From Escherichia coli (GTDB lineage: Bacteria > Pseudomonadota > Gammaproteobacteria > Enterobacterales > Enterobacteriaceae): a stretch of 64,000 nucleotides of DNA. Positions within the stretch are counted from its first letter, which is position 1, and every line of letters starts with the position of its first letter. The position numbers were made by a program, and so were the translations under genes. Below the pieces are notes generated by a model. The model saw nothing but the letters and a program-made list of their open reading frames with translations. It was not told where the DNA came from and searched no databases. Below, in pieces: positions 7,608 to 23,054 of the stretch. The stretch is from the NCBI RefSeq assembly GCF_044324875.1, contig NZ_CP172188.1. The stretch is one strand, 5' to 3'.

Positions 7608-8363
7608 TTAACGCGTTTTTTCGCTGCTTTCCACTACCGGGGGATTTTTCCTCAGTGACTCTCCCTGAAGGACCACTCGGTGTGAGTTATGTACCAGTCT
7701 GTCCAGGATGGCATCTGCTGTTGTTGGGTTCTCCATCAGACCATGCCATTTATCTACCGGGAACTGGCTTACCACTATCGTGCTGCTTTGTCCGTAACGA
7801 TCCTCTATGAGCTCCAGAAGGTCATTACACTGGGCGTTACTTAACTGTTCCAGCCCCAGATCGTCCAGGATTAGAACCTGTATTTTTTGCAACTGTTTCA
7901 GATATTTCAGCCAGCTGCCATCAACACGTCCCTGAGCCAGTTGTTCCAGTAATCGCCCGGTTCTACAGTACCGGACGCTGTGTTTCTGTCGACATGCCTG
8001 TTCGCCCAGCGCATTGGCTATCCAGCTCTTGCCACATCCTGTCGGACCGGTTATCAGCAGGTTTTTCCTGTGGGTTATGTAGTGGCCGTTCAGCAGTTCT
8101 CTCATCTGTTCAGCCCGCAGACCTCTTGAGGCCGGATAGCGCAGCCCTTCCGGTGTTGCCTGGTATTTCAGGCCGGCATTTTTTCTCAACCGTGCCACAC
8201 GGCTGTTTTCCCTGCTCAGAAGCTCGTCATCAACCAGCAGCGTCAGCCTTTCCTCGAACGACAGTTCGTCGTAGGTCTGAGGCGTTTCCCGCTGCCGTAT
8301 CAGGCTCCCGGCCATCGCCGGGAGTTTCAGTTGGGTCAGTTTGTTTAACAGGTTATCACTCAT
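7608..8363 (-). CDS. istB: IS21-family transposition helper ATPase IstB
   Basis: Walker A GPTGCGKS, DExx-like LILDDLG; start set at MSDNLL with AAGGAA Shine-Dalgarno; the ORF track extends upstream to 8606. Confidence 0.85.
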   Translation of the reverse strand: MSDNLLNKLTQLKLPAMAGSLIRQRETPQTYDELSFEERLTLLVDDELLSRENSRVARLRKNAGLKYQATPEGLRYPASRGLRAEQMRELLNGHYITHRKNLLITGPTGCGKSWIANALGEQACRQKHSVRYCRTGRLLEQLAQGRVDGSWLKYLKQLQKIQVLILDDLGLEQLSNAQCNDLLELIEDRYGQSSTIVVSQFPVDKWHGLMENPTTADAILDRLVHNSHRVVLQGESLRKNPPVVESSEKTR

Positions 8364-8379
8364 ACTGTTGTTCCTTCTG

Positions 8380-9915
8380 TCAGTGGTAGTAGCCCGGACC
8401 ACGCAGGTTTTCATGCTCTGAAGCATATGCCGGATGTTGTTCGCCCTGGCGGGATAATGGAAGCTCCAGGTTCTCCCGATGGTGACGCAGCAGATTGTCG
8501 ATAAAGCGTCTGTCAGGGGCGTTATAGTGCAGGGCAACGTAACAGGCCTTTTCCAGCCGTTCCGGGCCGTATTTTTTCTGAAGTGCCAGCAGCCCCAGAA
8601 CTGCACGATAAGCCAGTTCCGGATGGGGTTTTGCCTTCAGCATGGATTCAACCACCCGGCCTGTGGACGGGCCCGTACGTTTTCCCTGCTCGATCAGGCG
8701 TTCCGGTGTCCATGTCCCGTGCTGCCGGTGGCGCTCTGGCATGTGAAGCGGATTGGTTGTGTGTTTATATTCATGTGTGCTGCGCGGATGTTGCGCCACA
8801 CACTGCCCCTTGTGCCAGAGCTGTACCACCGACTGCCCCGCCTTCAGTGACAGACGCTGACCGACCAGTTCGTGTGGAACGGAGTACCAGTGACGGGCAT
8901 ATTCAACGTGGTAGTCAGGGCCAACCTTCACAGCTTTGTATTCCGTGTATTCATAAGGTGCCAGAGGCAGCGGAGAGAGTGCTGGCGCATCCAGTATGCG
9001 GAAGCGTTCTGCACGGGTTTGATTGCCGTACCCCTTCATTGGCCGGTTATTCATGTCTGTCAGTAACTCCCTAAGGCGCGCATTCAGCGCCCTGAGCGTG
9101 TGGAAGGTTTCATTACGGATGCGGGCAAGAAGCCATCGTTCAACGATGAGGACGCCGTTTTCTGCTTTTGGTTTATCTTTAGGTTTGCGTGGTCGGGCCG
9201 GGATGATAACCGTGCCATAGTGCTCAGCCAGTGCCTGATAACTGTCGTTGATGACAGGCTCATATCGATCGGCCTTTTTCACTGCGCTTCTGAGGTTATC
9301 GGGGATGAGCAGCTTCGGTACGCCGCCCAGGAAGGTCAGGCAACGGCTGTGGGCATTTAACCATGACATCATGTCCTGACCTTCGCACGCTTCAACGTAG
9401 GTATAGTTGGACGCCCCCATTACGGCCACGAAGATTGCCACGCGGCGTATCTCACCGGTGTCCGGATTAATAACAGGAACCGTAGGACCACAGAAGTCGA
9501 TAAAAAGCTTTTCGCCGGCACGATGCTCCTGGCGCATGGAGAGACGTCGCGTTTTTTTCCACTCCCGGTAGCAACGGCAGAAGTGCGAGTATCCCATCGC
9601 TTTGTTACCCGCCTGTGCCTTGTATTCCATCCACAACAGTTGCCGCGTCACACCTGGTTTTCTCATTTCCGTATCGAAGTACAACATGTCAGGCATTACA
9701 AGCTCTGATGCAAAGGTGTCTTTGGGCGGAAAAATGAGTTTCTCCAGCGTGTCATGGGATATATCAGCAGGTAATGGCCATGACAGAGAAGAGGCTTTGA
9801 AGCGGGCAAGAACCTCAAAAACGGTTGAGGCGCTGATGTGTAACGTCAGTCCGATACAACGGTTAGTCAGCTTCTTGTCGAACTTGAGCTGAAGGATCTT
9901 AAAACAGGTTTCCAT
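8380..9915 (-). CDS. istA: IS21-family transposase IstA
   Basis: ~511 aa from METCF... (AGGAG Shine-Dalgarno); N-terminal HTH and a DDE-type core; the ORF track extends to 10026. Confidence 0.85.
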   Translation of the reverse strand: METCFKILQLKFDKKLTNRCIGLTLHISASTVFEVLARFKASSLSWPLPADISHDTLEKLIFPPKDTFASELVMPDMLYFDTEMRKPGVTRQLLWMEYKAQAGNKAMGYSHFCRCYREWKKTRRLSMRQEHRAGEKLFIDFCGPTVPVINPDTGEIRRVAIFVAVMGASNYTYVEACEGQDMMSWLNAHSRCLTFLGGVPKLLIPDNLRSAVKKADRYEPVINDSYQALAEHYGTVIIPARPRKPKDKPKAENGVLIVERWLLARIRNETFHTLRALNARLRELLTDMNNRPMKGYGNQTRAERFRILDAPALSPLPLAPYEYTEYKAVKVGPDYHVEYARHWYSVPHELVGQRLSLKAGQSVVQLWHKGQCVAQHPRSTHEYKHTTNPLHMPERHRQHGTWTPERLIEQGKRTGPSTGRVVESMLKAKPHPELAYRAVLGLLALQKKYGPERLEKACYVALHYNAPDRRFIDNLLRHHRENLELPLSRQGEQHPAYASEHENLRGPGYYH

Positions 9916-10307
9916 AGTGCTCCTGGATTTTCTCTTTCTGGACATTGACGTCTCCACTGGTTTAAACACGGCAATGGAGACTGTGGTGAAAAGAGTTAAT
10001 TCCCGGAGTGACTGGCAGGATGCCAATCAATGATCGGAAGCATGCCAAATCGTGATCGATTGTGATGCCAAACTGTGATCGGAGATGGATGCCAAATCAT
10101 GATCGATTCGAATGCCAAACTGCGATCGATTCAGATGCCATTTTGCAGCCAAATTTCTGTCAAAAAATAAAATCCACAAAAAGTGGTTGACACTATTTTG
10201 GAAATCACAAACTGCACATAATCCATCGCGCTAACGGCTCCCGTTGAAGGTTCTTTTGACGATTAACTTTCAGCCGAAGCGCGGTAGGGAGTCATAACGC
10301 CAAAGCA

Positions 10308-17186: not shown

Positions 17187-18167
17187 GTGGCCCAGGAGTT
17201 ACAACAATATTTTCTACAGTCAGTGCTCATTAACGATAACAAAGTGCCACGAGACTGGATTTTTACCGCAGTATATGTAGAAAAAACCAGCCTCAAAGCC
17301 CCTTTGCTAAAACTGGAAATTCATGACGCTACCGGCACCGTAATTGATGACTGGAAAGCCAAATACGGTGCATCGCTGGTGGCTGAAATGGGCGATCCAA
17401 ACGGTAATGCAGGCACTTTTAAAACAGATTTCTTTGTTACGTCTGCAATGCTGGCTGGTGATGTTGTTACCGTTATTGCTGTCAGTGAAGACGTGCGCAG
17501 GTTTAAGATCCCCTCCCCGCGCACAAATTTACATACCAACAAAACACCAGACGCTATATTCAAGGCATATTCCGGCAAGCTTAAAATTACCAGCAGCGTG
17601 CTAAAACGCGCAGTTACATATCATCTGAATGCCGGTGACAAACCGTCAAAAATGCTTTCGGAGATAGCGCGAGACAAAGGTGCATTATGTTGGGTATGCC
17701 GGGGGGAATTTAACTTTTACACCCTGGATGATCTGATGAAGCAAACGCCATCATTTACCTACGAGGGGAATAACCCTAAAGCAGAATACACTTTGTCCAA
17801 AATGCGCCTACTCCAACAGGAACATGCGACAACAGCAAAGAATCAATATCGTTTTGTTGGGTATTCCATGACCGATGGCTACGTCGAATATGGCGATAGC
17901 TCACTCCCAGTGCGTTATATATCCGACTCTGATATGGAAACTCTTCGCAATATGCAGCTGTCTCTCGTCCCCAAAATGGATATAGAAGTCGCAGGCAATC
18001 CGGATATAAAACCGGGAATGGTAATAGAGATTATCGTATACCGCTATGACCAGGAAAACCGCATTGATGAATCAATGCCCCGCAAGCTGATAGTAAAAAA
18101 TGTTGCGCACTTTGAAGACCGCGTAGGCTACACAACACGAATGATATTAGGAGTGCCGAACAAATGA
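17187..18167 (+). CDS. baseplate / tail-associated protein (unknown)
   Basis: 326 aa; stop overlaps the start of the spike-like gene. Confidence 0.4.
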   Translation: MAQELQQYFLQSVLINDNKVPRDWIFTAVYVEKTSLKAPLLKLEIHDATGTVIDDWKAKYGASLVAEMGDPNGNAGTFKTDFFVTSAMLAGDVVTVIAVSEDVRRFKIPSPRTNLHTNKTPDAIFKAYSGKLKITSSVLKRAVTYHLNAGDKPSKMLSEIARDKGALCWVCRGEFNFYTLDDLMKQTPSFTYEGNNPKAEYTLSKMRLLQQEHATTAKNQYRFVGYSMTDGYVEYGDSSLPVRYISDSDMETLRNMQLSLVPKMDIEVAGNPDIKPGMVIEIIVYRYDQENRIDESMPRKLIVKNVAHFEDRVGYTTRMILGVPNK

Positions 18168-18817
18168 AGCGTAGAGCGCAAATTGTTGGAACTGTGCACC
18201 CGGCAGGGCTTATGCGTGCTCAGGTCCGTGTTTTACCAGACTGGAATGGCGTTCCTGATGACGATCTACCCTGGGCAGAATACCTGTTACCCATAGGTAA
18301 CGCGTTTGTACCTACAGTAAAAGGCGACCTGGTATGGGTAGAGTTTCCTTATCTGGATGTTAATGGTCGAATTGATACCAGACGCCCAATGATAGTTGGC
18401 GCAGCTCAGGATGCGCCTGGCGGAGTACCAAACGTCGCGCCGGAGGCGTCAGGCAATGGTAGCGGCTGGACGCCACCAGAAGTAGACGGAGCGCCTCCCC
18501 GCCCGCAATTTTCGGCGACAAAAGATTTCGTGATTCACCGCAACAATGTGCTCGAAGTGCGAACGGCTGGCGGTGGATATGAAATAGCGAATACGGCAGC
18601 AGGCTCAAGGATTGGAATGAATGAATCAGGGCAGATATACATCATTGGTCCGGCTGATGTAGTAGTGAATGCGGGAGGGAGTGTTAACGTCAAATCAGCC
18701 GATAACATCAGCGTTAATGGCAAAAACATTACTGTGACAGCCGACGAAAATATTGATTTCAAGGCTGGAGGCACCTTCCAGGCTATCGCAAGCAACTTTG
18801 ATTTCAAGAAGGGATAG
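18164..18817 (+). CDS. baseplate central spike protein (gpV-like)
   Basis: N-terminal region VRVLPDWNGVPDDDLPWAEYLLPIG... and a Gly-rich C-terminal repeat-like region (ISVNGKNITVTADENIDFKAGG) resembling gpV-type spikes. Confidence 0.5.
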   Translation: MKRRAQIVGTVHPAGLMRAQVRVLPDWNGVPDDDLPWAEYLLPIGNAFVPTVKGDLVWVEFPYLDVNGRIDTRRPMIVGAAQDAPGGVPNVAPEASGNGSGWTPPEVDGAPPRPQFSATKDFVIHRNNVLEVRTAGGGYEIANTAAGSRIGMNESGQIYIIGPADVVVNAGGSVNVKSADNISVNGKNITVTADENIDFKAGGTFQAIASNFDFKKG

Positions 18818-18826
18818 AAAACACAT

Positions 18827-18870
18827 CCAATTGTGTTAGATAATTGAACAGAATTTTCTAACACAATTGG
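18827..18870. promoter_or_regulatory. perfect 14-bp inverted repeat carrying the dispersed motif in both orientations, upstream of rdgC
   Basis: CCAATTGTGTTAGA (18827-18840) ... TCTAACACAATTGG (18857-18870), 16-bp spacer. Confidence 0.45.
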
Positions 18871-18876
18871 TGAAAC

Positions 18877-19782
18877 ATGAGATCAGTCGCTTTCAAAAAC
18901 ATCTTCATCTATCGTCTTTCACGTGAAGTTAACTGGAGTGCCGCAGAAGTATCCGATGCTCTTAGCAAATTCGTGTTTACTCCTTGCGGTTCTCAGGACA
19001 CAGCTAAAGTCGGTTGGACACCTGTTCTTGGTGACAACCTCACCCATGAATACCAGGGTTTTCTGCTAATACAGCATAAGCGAGAAGAAAAAATTCTCCC
19101 CTCGCAGGTGCTCAAGGAAGAGTTGCAGAAAAAAGTCCTGAAACTCGAAGAAGAGCAAGCCCGCAAGCTGAAGAAAACGGAAAGAGACAGTCTTAAAGAT
19201 GAAGTCCTGCATTCCCTTTTGCCTCGCGCGTTCACGAGAAAATCACTCGCCAAAATCCTGATCGACCGCAGCAACCATCTGGTATTCGTTGAGGCAAGCA
19301 GCGCCAAAAAGGCAGAGGACCAGCTGGCTTTATTGCGAAAATCGCTCGGCAGCCTGCCTGTCATTCCATTCACACCACGCGAACCGCTGGAAATTACAAT
19401 GACCGAGTGGTTTAAAAACGGCTTCCCTGCCGGATTTACAGCAGGTGAAGACGCCACATTAAAGGGTCTGCTCGATAATGGTGGTGCCGTTCGCTGCAAC
19501 AAAGTTGATCTACAGTCCGACGAGATTATGTCTCACATTGAGGCGGGGAAAGTAGCTACGACCGTTGCAATTAACTGGATGGAACGCGCGTCGTTCAGAG
19601 TCAACGATGATATGAGTATCAAAGCCCTGACATTCTGTGATGATCTCTATGACCAGAACGACGATATCGACCGGGAGGATGTAGCACAACGATTTGATGC
19701 TGATTTCGTGCTCTTTACGGGCGAATTATCTGCACTGTTTAACGCGCTGGTGGAGGCCATTGGCGGTGAAGCAGAACGATAA
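18877..19782 (+). CDS. rdgC: recombination-associated protein RdgC homologue
   Basis: 301 aa; near-colinear similarity to E. coli RdgC as I recall it ([35 protein letters not shown]..., [26 protein letters not shown]). Confidence 0.85.
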
Positions 19783-19798
19783 TAACCGACAGCTTGTT

Positions 19799-20446
19799 GT
19801 GAGTCTTTGTGATTTTACGGGGGCAATGGTTGCCCCCTGGCTGGAATACGGTGTCGATGCCGCTATCGTCGATCCACAGCACTTATCGACCAGTGACGAG
19901 CGGATGCAATCAGGTGCCGTTCTGACGCGTATTAGTGCGATCATCGATAGCGATGAAGTATACGCTTTTCTTCGTAAGAATTTGCAGCGCATCGTGTTTC
20001 TGGCCGGGTTCCCACCGTGTACTGACCTGGCTGTTTCCGGCGCGCGCTGGTTTTCTGACAAGGCTAATAAAGATCCGGTTTTCCAGTTCAAAGCAATGCA
20101 GGTTGTCTGGCAGTGTTACGACATTGCAAAGATGATTGGTTGCCCGTACATGATTGAAAACCCGGTCAGCCAAATATCGACATTCTGGCGTAAACCTGAT
20201 CACATCTTCCATCCTTACCACTTCACTGCATATTGCAAGGAAGACAATTACACCAAAAAAACATGCCTCTGGAGCGGGCAAGGCTTTGTCATGCCTGATG
20301 CCCTAATGGACGAATCATTAGGCAAGCCAGATAACAGAATCCATACCGCGCCACCTGGACCTGAAAGGGCTAATTTTCGAAGTGCTACTCCGCATGGATT
20401 CGCAAAGGCAGTTTTCGAAGCGAATAAGGGGGTGCTCTATGAGTAA
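19799..20446 (+). CDS. DNA cytosine-C5 methyltransferase-like protein (short; start uncertain)
   Basis: LCDFTGAM (motif I-like), GFPPC (PC catalytic motif-like), MIENPV (ENV-like); candidate starts GTG 19799 or ATG 19826; the frame is open from 19694. Confidence 0.4.
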   Translation: MSLCDFTGAMVAPWLEYGVDAAIVDPQHLSTSDERMQSGAVLTRISAIIDSDEVYAFLRKNLQRIVFLAGFPPCTDLAVSGARWFSDKANKDPVFQFKAMQVVWQCYDIAKMIGCPYMIENPVSQISTFWRKPDHIFHPYHFTAYCKEDNYTKKTCLWSGQGFVMPDALMDESLGKPDNRIHTAPPGPERANFRSATPHGFAKAVFEANKGVLYE

Positions 20447-21344
20447 ATCTATAGCAAGCATAGCCATAGAAAAACAGGATACGATGGCTGAAATTAGCTA
20501 TATGCGCACCATTCGGACTCAGGATGAATATGAGCGCCCGATCTTCAAATGGGTAGGCGGTAAATTCTCAGAGTTGCCTACAGTGCTTGAGCATCTACCA
20601 CACGGCAAGCGGTTAATAGAACCATTCGTTGGTGGCGGTTCCGTATTTACAAATGCAGGATTTCGCCACAACCTGCTTAATGATATTAACGGTGACCTGA
20701 TTAACTTCTATCAGACATTGCAGCGAGAAGGACATTCGCTCGTCACGCTGTCATATAGTTTTTTCCAAAATTACAACAACGCTGACGCTTACCTCGAAGT
20801 GCGTGAGGCATTTAACAGAGGAAAGTATGACCAGCTACATCATGCTGCCGCCTTTTTGTACCTTAATCGGCACTGTTTTAATGGCGTAACGCGGTACAAC
20901 CAAAATGGCGAGTTCAACGTGGGGTATGGCAAATACAAAGCGCCCTACTTCCCACATGCAGAGATGGAGGCATTTTTGGCTGATGACGTACTCAAAAACA
21001 CGTCCTTTGTATCAGGTGACTTTGCTGGCGTCATCGAGGCGGCTGGTGAAGGCGATGTGATTTTTTGCGATCCGCCGTATGAACCGCTGCCGGATACAGA
21101 AGGGTTTACCAGTTATTCAGGAAATAGCTTCCGTTTCGACGAACAGAAACGGCTGGTATCTCTATTGGTGGAAGCCCACCAGCGCGGCGCTAAGGTAGTG
21201 ATAACAAATAGTGGTGCGCCAAACATCCGTGAACTATATGAAGGAAACGGGTTTAAAGTACATCATATGGCAGCCAGACGGTCGGTTTCCTGCAAGGCGT
21301 CAACACGTGTAGTTGCTAACGATATAATTGCAATAATGAAGTAA
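20439..21344 (+). CDS. dam: DNA adenine methyltransferase (Dam-like, N6-adenine)
   Basis: FKWVGGK, EPFVGGGSVF, DPPY motifs; AAGGGGG Shine-Dalgarno; start overlaps the upstream stop. Confidence 0.8.
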   Translation: MSKSIASIAIEKQDTMAEISYMRTIRTQDEYERPIFKWVGGKFSELPTVLEHLPHGKRLIEPFVGGGSVFTNAGFRHNLLNDINGDLINFYQTLQREGHSLVTLSYSFFQNYNNADAYLEVREAFNRGKYDQLHHAAAFLYLNRHCFNGVTRYNQNGEFNVGYGKYKAPYFPHAEMEAFLADDVLKNTSFVSGDFAGVIEAAGEGDVIFCDPPYEPLPDTEGFTSYSGNSFRFDEQKRLVSLLVEAHQRGAKVVITNSGAPNIRELYEGNGFKVHHMAARRSVSCKASTRVVANDIIAIMK

Positions 21345-21372
21345 AAAACGCCGCAGTAGCGGCGTTTACTTT
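21343..21372. terminator. bidirectional rho-independent terminator (mainly serving glnS on the minus strand)
   Basis: aacgccgc-agta-gcggcgtt with T-runs on the minus-strand side. Confidence 0.55.
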
Positions 21373-21392: not shown

Positions 21393-23054
21393 TTAACCTA
21401 ACTTCGCCCAGGTATCACGCAGCCCAACGGTGCGGTTAAATACCGGTTTTTCCGCCGTAGAATGGCGGCTATCGAGGCAGAAGTAACCTTCACGCTCAAA
21501 CTGGAATGCTTTACCCGCAACCGCATCTTTCAGCGACGGTTCAGCAAAGCCCTGTTTGATCACCAGCGATTCCGGGTTAATCACCGACAGGAAATCATCC
21601 GCAGCACCTGGGTTAGGCACGCTGAACAGACGATCGTACAGGCGGATTTCAACCGGCAGCGCATGTGCCGCGCTCACCCAGTGAATAACGCCTTTCACTT
21701 TACGACCATCTGCCGGATCTTTGCTTAAGGTGTCGGCGTCATAAGTACAGAAGATGGTGGTGATATTGCCTTCGGCATCTTTCTCCACGCGTTCAGCCTT
21801 AATGACGTAAGCATTACGCAGACGCACTTCTTTACCCAGCACCAGACGTTTGTACTGCTTGTTAGCTTCTTCGCGGAAATCGGCGCGGTCGATCCAAATC
21901 TCACCGCTAAACGGCACCTGACGGCTACCCATTTCCGGTTTGTTCGGATGGTTCGGCATGGTGACCATTTCGCCTTCGCCCTGGTAGTTTTCGATAACCA
22001 GTTTCACCGGATCGATAACCGCCATTGCGCGCGGCGCATTTTCGTTGAGATCTTCACGGATGCAGGATTCCAGCGACGCCATCTCAATGGTGTTGTCCTG
22101 CTTGGTCACGCCGATGCGTTTGCAGAACTCACGAATAGAAGCCGCAGTGTAACCACGACGACGCAGACCGGAAATGGTCGGCATACGCGGGTCATCCCAG
22201 CCTTCAACGTGTTTGTCGGTCACCAGCAGGTTCAGCTTACGCTTGGACATCACGGTGTATTCCAGATTCAGGCGCGAGAATTCGTACTGGCGCGGGTGAA
22301 CAGGAATGGTGATGTTGTCCAGCACCCAGTCGTACAGGCGACGGTTGTCCTGGAACTCAAGCGTACACAGAGAGTGCGTAATACCTTCCAGCGCATCGCT
22401 GATGCAATGGGTGAAGTCGTACATCGGGTAGATGCACCACTTGTTGCCAGTCTGGTGGTGTTCAGCAAATTTAATGCGGTACAGCACCGGATCGCGCATT
22501 ACGATAAATGGCGACGCCATGTCGATTTTCGCACGCAGGCAGGCTTTACCTTCTTCAAAACCACCGGCACGCATTTTTTCGAACAGCGCCAGGTTCTCTT
22601 CAACGCTGCGATCGCGGTACGGGCTGTTTTTACCCGGCTGCGTCAGGGTGCCGCGGTATTCGCGGATCTGTTCCGGCGTCAGTTCGTCAACATACGCCAG
22701 GCCTTTGTTGATCAGTTCAACAGCATAGGCGTGGAGCTGATCAAAATAATCGGAGGAGTAACGGATGTTGCCAGACCAGTGAAAACCTAACCATTCAACG
22801 TCGTTTTTAATCGACTCGACGTACTCGATATCTTCTTTTACCGGGTTAGTGTCGTCGAAACGCAGGTTGCACTGGCCTTTATAGTCCTGGGCGATCCCGA
22901 AGTTCAGGCAGATAGATTTCGCATGACCAATATGCAGATAGCCATTCGGTTCCGGCGGGAAACGGGTATGTACTGTGGTGTGCTTACCACTGGCCAGATC
23001 TTCATCGATGATCTGACGAATAAAGTTAGTCGGGCGGGCTTCTGCCTCACTCAT
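21393..23054 (-). CDS. glnS: glutamine--tRNA ligase (GlnRS)
   Basis: 553 aa, colinear with E. coli GlnS over the whole length as I recall it (HIGH motif, VMSKR motif); C-terminus ...WAKLG. Confidence 0.95.

Follow-up and report, generated by a model that had tools for sequence, protein, structure and literature searches.

The 64,000-nucleotide (nt) stretch of Escherichia coli contig NZ_CP172188.1 analysed here (the window; RefSeq assembly GCF_044324875.1) carries three co-directional genes: an rdgC/hrdC homologue, an open reading frame (ORF1) with motifs of cytosine-C5 methyltransferases, and a gene for a Dam-like adenine methyltransferase (dam). The genes overlap by 17 nt (rdgC/ORF1) and 8 nt (ORF1/dam), both downstream genes have their own Shine-Dalgarno sequence and the unit ends at a terminator (Table 1). 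To judge from nucleotide identity, the window is a D6-like phage-plasmid, a relative of P1: the 2.6 kb around ORF1 and dam share 95.9% identity with Escherichia phage D6 (MF356679), itself a plasmid-prophage, and 99.6% with E. coli plasmids such as pAPEC201603, and all of the 100 matches in complete E. coli genomes (100/100) were located on plasmids of about 90 kb each. An earlier reading of the letters of this DNA (the sequence-only reading) had located the motifs LCDFTGAM, GFPPC and MIENPV in ORF1 and FKWVGGK and DPPY in Dam, all of which lie where it placed them. It had also seen that ORF1 ends 8 nt into dam in a different frame, and this is borne out, with the ORF1 TAA at 20444-20446, the dam ATG at 20439 and the dam frame at +1 relative to that of ORF1. 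It wavered between a split pair and a frameshifted fusion; the sequences compared below indicate that ORF1 and dam are two intact, naturally separate overlapping genes.

The start of ORF1 is ambiguous, as had been noticed before, because its frame (frame 2) is open from TTG 19694 to the stop codon and GTG 19766 (which overlaps rdgC), GTG 19799 and ATG 19826 are all possible. GTG 19766 is the best-supported candidate, since four indications agree on it: GGAGG lies 9 nt upstream, the phrog_757 profile match begins at this start, the codon is retained in 5/5 D6-like lineages compared, and the D6 GenBank record uses it for the ORF1 counterpart. The start chosen by PGAP, ATG 19826, would drop motif I of ORF1, that is, the first strand and the glycine loop. 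Some RefSeq records likewise put the ORF1 start at the internal ATG and lose motif I, which looks like an annotation artefact of comparison with a 762-aa (amino acid) Dmt, the bifunctional methyltransferase of P1.

The sequence of Dam predicts, unambiguously, a complete and independently initiated N6-adenine methylase of the D12 class. PF02086 matches profile positions 1-252 of 253 (E 1.9e-56, 192 bits, cut-off 22), TIGR00571 scores 249 bits against a cut-off of 114.85, and the protein contains the FKWVGGK motif together with motif I as FVGGGS (FxGxG) and the catalytic motif IV, DPPY. With the equivalog model of E. coli Dam, NF008152, it scores 240 bits, under the cut-off of 441. The protein is 99.7% identical to D6 orf63, and the alignment with P1 Dmt, which the sequence-only reading had proposed as a check, gave 69% identity to residues 478-753 for Dam and nothing for ORF1 (best BLASTP E 2.8 against the N-terminal half). 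Dam thus appears as the ortholog of the C-terminal half of P1 Dmt, and because of this identity to the Dam half of an enzyme annotated as GATC-methylating in the P1 record, it probably methylates adenine in GATC as the P1 enzyme does.

Other D6-like elements share this separate arrangement. ORF1 is found in D6-like plasmids of 88 of the 5426 complete E. coli genomes, at 77-99.5% nucleotide identity, and the intact 226-codon frame persists in lineages at about 90%, 89% and 82% identity, where the ratio of non-synonymous to synonymous substitution rates (dN/dS) is 0.06-0.10 at dS values of up to 1.4. Both Dam and ORF1 are under purifying selection. The order rdgC-ORF1-dam is kept in 8/8 D6-like viral contigs from IMG/VR. 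At the junction itself the sequence differs between two diverged lineages (AAGGGGGtgctctATGAGTAA versus AAGGAGGgaatccGTGGCTGA), and despite this change dam keeps its own Shine-Dalgarno sequence, its own start and an 8-nt overlap in both. In the more diverged one (L011), AAGGAGG is followed after 6 nt by a GTG at the dam start, and the overlap, GTGGCTGA, is again 8 nt long.

One plasmid departs from this arrangement. CP031917 (NZ_CP031917.1, L008) has G4 and not G5 at the junction (20428-20432), which results in an apparent ORF1-Dam fusion and would suit a P1-type bifunctional Dmt that has been broken by a frameshift, whether through faulty sequencing or through an indel near 20380-20446 that recently made it a pseudogene. 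Since rdgC, dam and glnS are frameshifted in CP031917 too, we judge this assembly error-rich, and its G4 is most likely a homopolymer sequencing error. Annotation could be read in favour of a broken gene as well, because PGAP calls the D6-like Dam a pseudogene ("incomplete; missing N-terminus") in 5/5 RefSeq plasmids inspected (L002, L009, L010 and L011 among them), with a start 88 nt downstream of the real ATG. The simplest explanation of this flag is, however, that the database consists mostly of 762-aa P1-type proteins, against which the shorter D6-like Dam looks incomplete. Genuine split versions of P1 dmt are also known: in some P1-type elements a 473-aa PF00145 gene and a 297-aa PF02086 gene overlap by 50 nt (L096 2501-4766, L097 and L098; at least nine contigs; a cluster of 123 sequences), so P1 dmt occurs in both fused and split states. 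A broken fusion does not account for separate genes with their own Dam Shine-Dalgarno sequence and start in lineages down to 82% identity and in all good assemblies, nor for an ORF1 that is intact, under purifying selection, of normal length for its own family and devoid of detectable similarity to the N-terminal half of P1 Dmt. We therefore reject the frameshifted P1-type fusion and regard it as extremely unlikely. From the earlier alternative of a split pair or a frameshifted fusion, the separateness of the genes stands and the frameshift falls, and even the word "split" misleads, as ORF1 belongs to another family than the P1 N-terminal half.

The same run of G residues could serve a programmed +1 frameshift (AAG GGG G, 20427-20433) that would generate an ORF1-Dam fusion besides the two separate products. 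Upstream of the dam ATG, 39 codons of the Dam frame are free of stops, tRNA-Gly slipping by +1 on GGGGG would yield exactly the fused sequence of CP031917, and a natural fusion of an ORF1-family domain with Dam is known (P0241, see below). We nevertheless consider such recoding very unlikely, because the G5 run is not conserved (the lineage at 82% identity reads GGAGGGA) and is better explained as the Shine-Dalgarno sequence of dam, no known stimulator of +1 slippage (an in-frame stop or a rare codon, for instance) is present at the slip site, and 39 stop-free codons arise by chance in about 15% of cases by our own estimate, (61/64)^39.

Comparison with the two reference elements supports the same view of the locus. 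D6 shares the order rdgC-orf64-orf63-glnS with the window, and its record already annotates the pair, so that the finding itself is known: orf65 is an RdgC family protein "similar to P1 hrdC", orf64 (96.9% identical to ORF1 at the protein level) a "putative DNA-cytosine methylase", orf63 a "site-specific DNA-adenine methylase" that is "similar to C-term half of P1 dmt only", and orf62 GlnS. The window and D6 show allelic differences only, the window being nearer to E. coli plasmids such as pAPEC201603. In P1, dmt likewise lies directly downstream of hrdC/rdgC and a C5-type module accompanies Dam. As the sequence-only reading had it, P1 Dmt (AAQ14041) is a single fused protein, a bifunctional polypeptide of 754 aa with PF00145 at about 8-465 and PF02086 at 493-725. 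Whereas P1 thus has a canonical PF00145 domain of about 470 aa fused to Dam, the window has a separate 226-aa protein of another family. An hhalign comparison of the ORF1 family with P1 Dmt N-terminal halves was not significant (E 0.34-0.45, with a shallow template alignment made of close P1 relatives only); in this alignment motifs I, IV and VI were collinear, with GFPPC and IENPV opposite TPC and ENV of P1. These comparisons indicate that the window pair is not a P1-type bifunctional Dmt, that only its Dam is orthologous to P1 Dmt and that ORF1 is not a detached N-terminal half, appearing instead as a non-orthologous module at the same position.

The predicted structure of the ORF1 protein has a predicted local distance difference test (pLDDT) value of 91.7 and adopts, in structure comparisons, the C5-cytosine DNA methyltransferase fold in its catalytic domain. 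Foldseek matched the model to DNMT3A/B with a probability of 1.00, and fold-comparison scores were 14.3 for DNMT3B, 12.4 for the prophage enzyme 3g7u, 12.1 for the carboxymethyltransferase CmoX (8yf3), 11.0 for M.HhaI, 10.9 for M.MpeI, 10.6 for DNMT1, 10.4 for M.HaeIII and 9.9 for Dnmt2. The motifs follow in the canonical order of C5 methyltransferases: motif I (SLCDFTG, residues 13-19), the acidic residue of motif II (D36), motif IV (GFPPC, residues 81-85, with C85 as the Pro-Cys nucleophile), motif VI (IENPV, residues 130-134, with E131), a motif VIII-like stretch (YTKKTCLW, in which Y162, K164 and T166 are conserved) and a motif IX-like stretch (RSATPHGFA, residues 205-213, of the form RSATPxGFA). 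Among 132 diverse family representatives with 29-50% identity to the query, C85, E131 and P133 occur without exception (100%), D36 is conserved in 98%, K164 in 99%, and Y162 and W169 in at least 98%. The model and this conservation show a predicted catalytic core of the C5-methyltransferase type in which both the nucleophile and the proton donor are preserved.

ORF1 also belongs to a large family. It matches PHROG 757, "DNA methyltransferase", over profile positions 7-222 of 247 (E 6.7e-79). More than 7000 relatives remain after clustering at 90% identity, nearly all of them stand-alone proteins of 215-255 aa without a Pfam domain, and clustering at 50% identity leaves 3180 clusters, mostly of 200-260 aa. 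Because these relatives are nearly all stand-alone proteins of similar size, ORF1 appears to be full length for its own family and not truncated; the sequence-only reading was right that it is C5-like (by fold and by PHROG 757) and, at 226 aa, short, and its shortness is simply that of the family. By tblastn, relatives were detected in 1569 of 50,697 phage records (about 3%), including T1-like Drexlerviridae, Webervirus, 9NA and Felix-O1-like phages, in which the gene stands alone among early genes. Members such as Salmonella phage 9NA gp78 and Escherichia phage tonn gp40 have the size and the motifs of ORF1 and, unlike ORF1, lie among early or replication genes with no Dam adjacent; distant PHROG 757 members have the canonical FDGSG as motif I where the window copy has CDFTG. 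In prophage contexts we found no conserved partner gene of the family, whose positions vary from early regions to the lysis cassette.

Members embedded in larger proteins also occur. P0241 (L015 218-1909, Logan SRR32529081) is a 563-aa protein on a single 2-kb metagenomic contig, in which an ORF1-family domain (1-250) is followed, after a linker of about 50 aa, by a Dam domain (303-546) with 48% identity to the Dam of the window. Structural matching further revealed ORF1-type domains in two proteins of uncultured phages in BFVD, A0A6J5NPY6 (1126 aa) and A0A6J5SE15 (1397 aa), with TM (template modelling) scores of 0.68-0.71, one of the two being annotated with a helicase/UvrB N-terminal domain. 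These models suggest that the minimal catalytic module also serves within multidomain enzymes. Gene fusion suggests a functional link between the C5-like and the Dam modules: Dam is joined to a canonical C5 domain at this locus in P1, and to an ORF1-family domain in P0241.

Several results weigh against a plain assignment of ORF1 as a C5 DNA methyltransferase. A hidden Markov model (HMM) search, which the sequence-only reading had named as one way to show that ORF1 is not a methyltransferase, gave a mixed answer: PHROGs and the structure place ORF1 with C5 methyltransferases, whereas there were no matches in Pfam at E up to 0.1, in NCBIfam at E up to 1 or among the methyltransferase models of PADLOC. 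ORF1 falls below every curated threshold for the canonical enzymes (PF00145/TIGR00675: M.HhaI, M.HaeIII, the DNMT3A/B catalytic domain), its homology to PF00145 proteins stays below significance at the sequence level, and sequence and profile searches of the PDB returned nothing significant. Motif I of the window copy reads CDFTG and not FxGxG, and motif VIII has Lys in place of the canonical Arg (YTKKT versus QxRxR). Only about 40 residues separate motif VIII (K164) from motif IX (R205), where canonical enzymes hold the target-recognition domain, and ORF1 with its 226 aa is about 100 residues shorter than the bacterial C5 enzymes matched (at least 327 aa); in the predicted protein the target-recognition domain is nearly absent, which leaves DNA binding and specificity without an explanation. 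In addition, Dam is absent within 4 kb of the family gene at 72 of 80 viral loci; the association with Dam is thus confined to certain lineages, and the family does not depend on Dam in general. A search for an experimental study of this small family found nothing relevant in the literature library searched. Because the fold and the catalytic motifs agree with the C5 class whereas the curated profiles and the recognition domain do not, we file ORF1 as "C5-methyltransferase-like, PHROG 757" and not as a member of PF00145.

The serious rival therefore concerns function: ORF1 may have the C5 fold without being a DNA 5-methylcytosine enzyme dependent on S-adenosylmethionine (SAM), acting instead on RNA/tRNA or free nucleotides, transferring another group, depending on a partner or being a non-catalytic binder. 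The missing recognition domain and the off-consensus motif I fit this possibility, as does the fold, which is shared by the tRNA methyltransferase Dnmt2 and by CmoX; the latter, a phage enzyme, carboxymethylates DNA cytosines at C5 and illustrates how C5-methyltransferase-like phage enzymes can use other cofactors (PMC12783734). The occurrence of the domain within the 1126- and 1397-aa viral proteins, one with a helicase N-terminal domain, and in the Dam fusion P0241 suggests, in addition, that ORF1-type domains can rely on partner domains. On the other hand, the invariant Cys and Glu argue for catalysis, no cmoA-like cofactor gene lies adjacent to ORF1, P1 has a canonical DNA C5-methyltransferase domain at the equivalent position, and the best structural matches are DNA enzymes. 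The top match, DNMT3, has a very small target-recognition domain of its own, the smallest of any such family, and so fits the short stretch between motifs VIII and IX of ORF1. On balance we hold this rival to be unlikely, though a real possibility. A bolder proposal, which we rate as quite unlikely, sees ORF1 as representative of a very large and uncurated family of "minimal" enzymes that modify pyrimidines at C5. These would either recognise DNA in a new manner, for example as a DNMT3-like dimer, by motifs that are very short or almost without specificity, or with the help of partners such as Dam or helicase domains, or else add a non-methyl group to a substrate other than duplex DNA.

The explanation that we prefer overall, and hold with considerable confidence, is that rdgC, ORF1 and dam form a translationally coupled unit of naturally separate genes in which ORF1 is a minimal C5-like enzyme. 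Ribosomes that end rdgC and ORF1 would re-initiate on the next gene. ORF1, with its Rossmann fold, Pro-Cys nucleophile, Glu-Asn-Pro-Val proton donor and acidic motif II residue, would have little beyond the catalytic core; as modelled, it would use Cys85 for covalent catalysis and methylate cytosines of DNA at C5 with SAM as the donor, its sequence specificity probably being short or relaxed. ORF1 and Dam together would mark the phage-plasmid DNA and thereby protect it from restriction, and by analogy with P1, Dam may also support GATC-dependent packaging and replication.

The surroundings of the unit are summarised in Table 1. Downstream, dam faces glnS, which is a reported feature of all D6-like genomes (PMC6799933). 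Upstream, a perfect 14-bp inverted repeat (CCAATTGTGTTAGA-16 nt-TCTAACACAATTGG, 18827-18870) lies between the baseplate stop and the rdgC ATG. As RNA it would fold with -22.7 kcal/mol (z -6.3), no T-run follows it, and its arms carry compensatory changes in D6 and another lineage (A/T to T/A; G/C to A/T), so that conservation extends to the hairpin as such. Placed at the 5' border of the rdgC-ORF1-dam unit, it may act in RNA processing or attenuation, or serve as an operator. No match to the P1 C1-operator, as it occurs at P1 Pdmt, was found upstream of the operon with up to three mismatches allowed.

Table 1. Features of the rdgC-ORF1-dam unit and its neighbours in the window
Feature	Position	Strand	Remarks
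Baseplate gene	18164-18817		
rdgC/hrdC homologue, first of the three-gene unit	18877..19782	+	PF04381 RdgC, E 5.8e-103; phrog_724; syntenic with P1 hrdC (directly upstream of dmt)
GGAGG, Shine-Dalgarno sequence for ORF1	19752..19756	+	9 nt upstream of GTG 19766; inside the rdgC coding region; read from sequence
ORF1, 226-aa minimal C5-cytosine-methyltransferase-like protein	19766..20446	+	Alternative starts GTG 19799, ATG 19826
AAGGGGG, Shine-Dalgarno sequence for dam	20426..20432	+	6 nt upstream of the ATG; inside the ORF1 3' end
Overlap ATGAGTAA, 8 nt	20439..20446	+	dam start and ORF1 stop; proposed translational coupling site
dam, predicted 301-aa Dam-family N6-adenine DNA methyltransferase	20439..21344	+	
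Terminator-like hairpin, bidirectional intrinsic	21346..21367		Between dam (+) and glnS (-); 9-bp stem, 6 GC pairs, T-runs on both strands
glnS, full-length glutaminyl-tRNA synthetase	21393-23054	-	Convergent with dam

GATC sites number 248 in the window, with 247 expected. Their densest cluster (10018-10140) was considered as a Dam-dependent pac site or origin and rejected, as it is the repeat-bearing end of an IS21-family element. This insertion sequence occupies 7608-10140, with an IstA-like transposase (8380-10026, minus strand) and a DnaC-like IstB (7608-8606, minus strand), and its end at 10018-10140 carries a direct repeat of about 22 bp in five copies (ATGCCAAAnnnTGATCG), every copy containing a GATC site.

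For the window itself, the outcome is mainly one of clean-up: the gene pair is intact and the RefSeq pseudogene flag on the D6-like Dam is most likely an artefact. The interest of the locus rests less on the adjacency of its genes than on an uncharacterised, minimal C5-like family whose members are habitually annotated as "DNA cytosine methylase", yet are recognised by no curated methyltransferase model. In the BASEL study, restriction sensitivity did not follow in any simple way from the methyltransferase genes present (PMC8594841). If active, ORF1 would be the smallest C5 DNA methyltransferase architecture, and the family could explain patterns of restriction resistance in T1-like, Webervirus, 9NA-like and D6-like phages for which gene content alone does not account.

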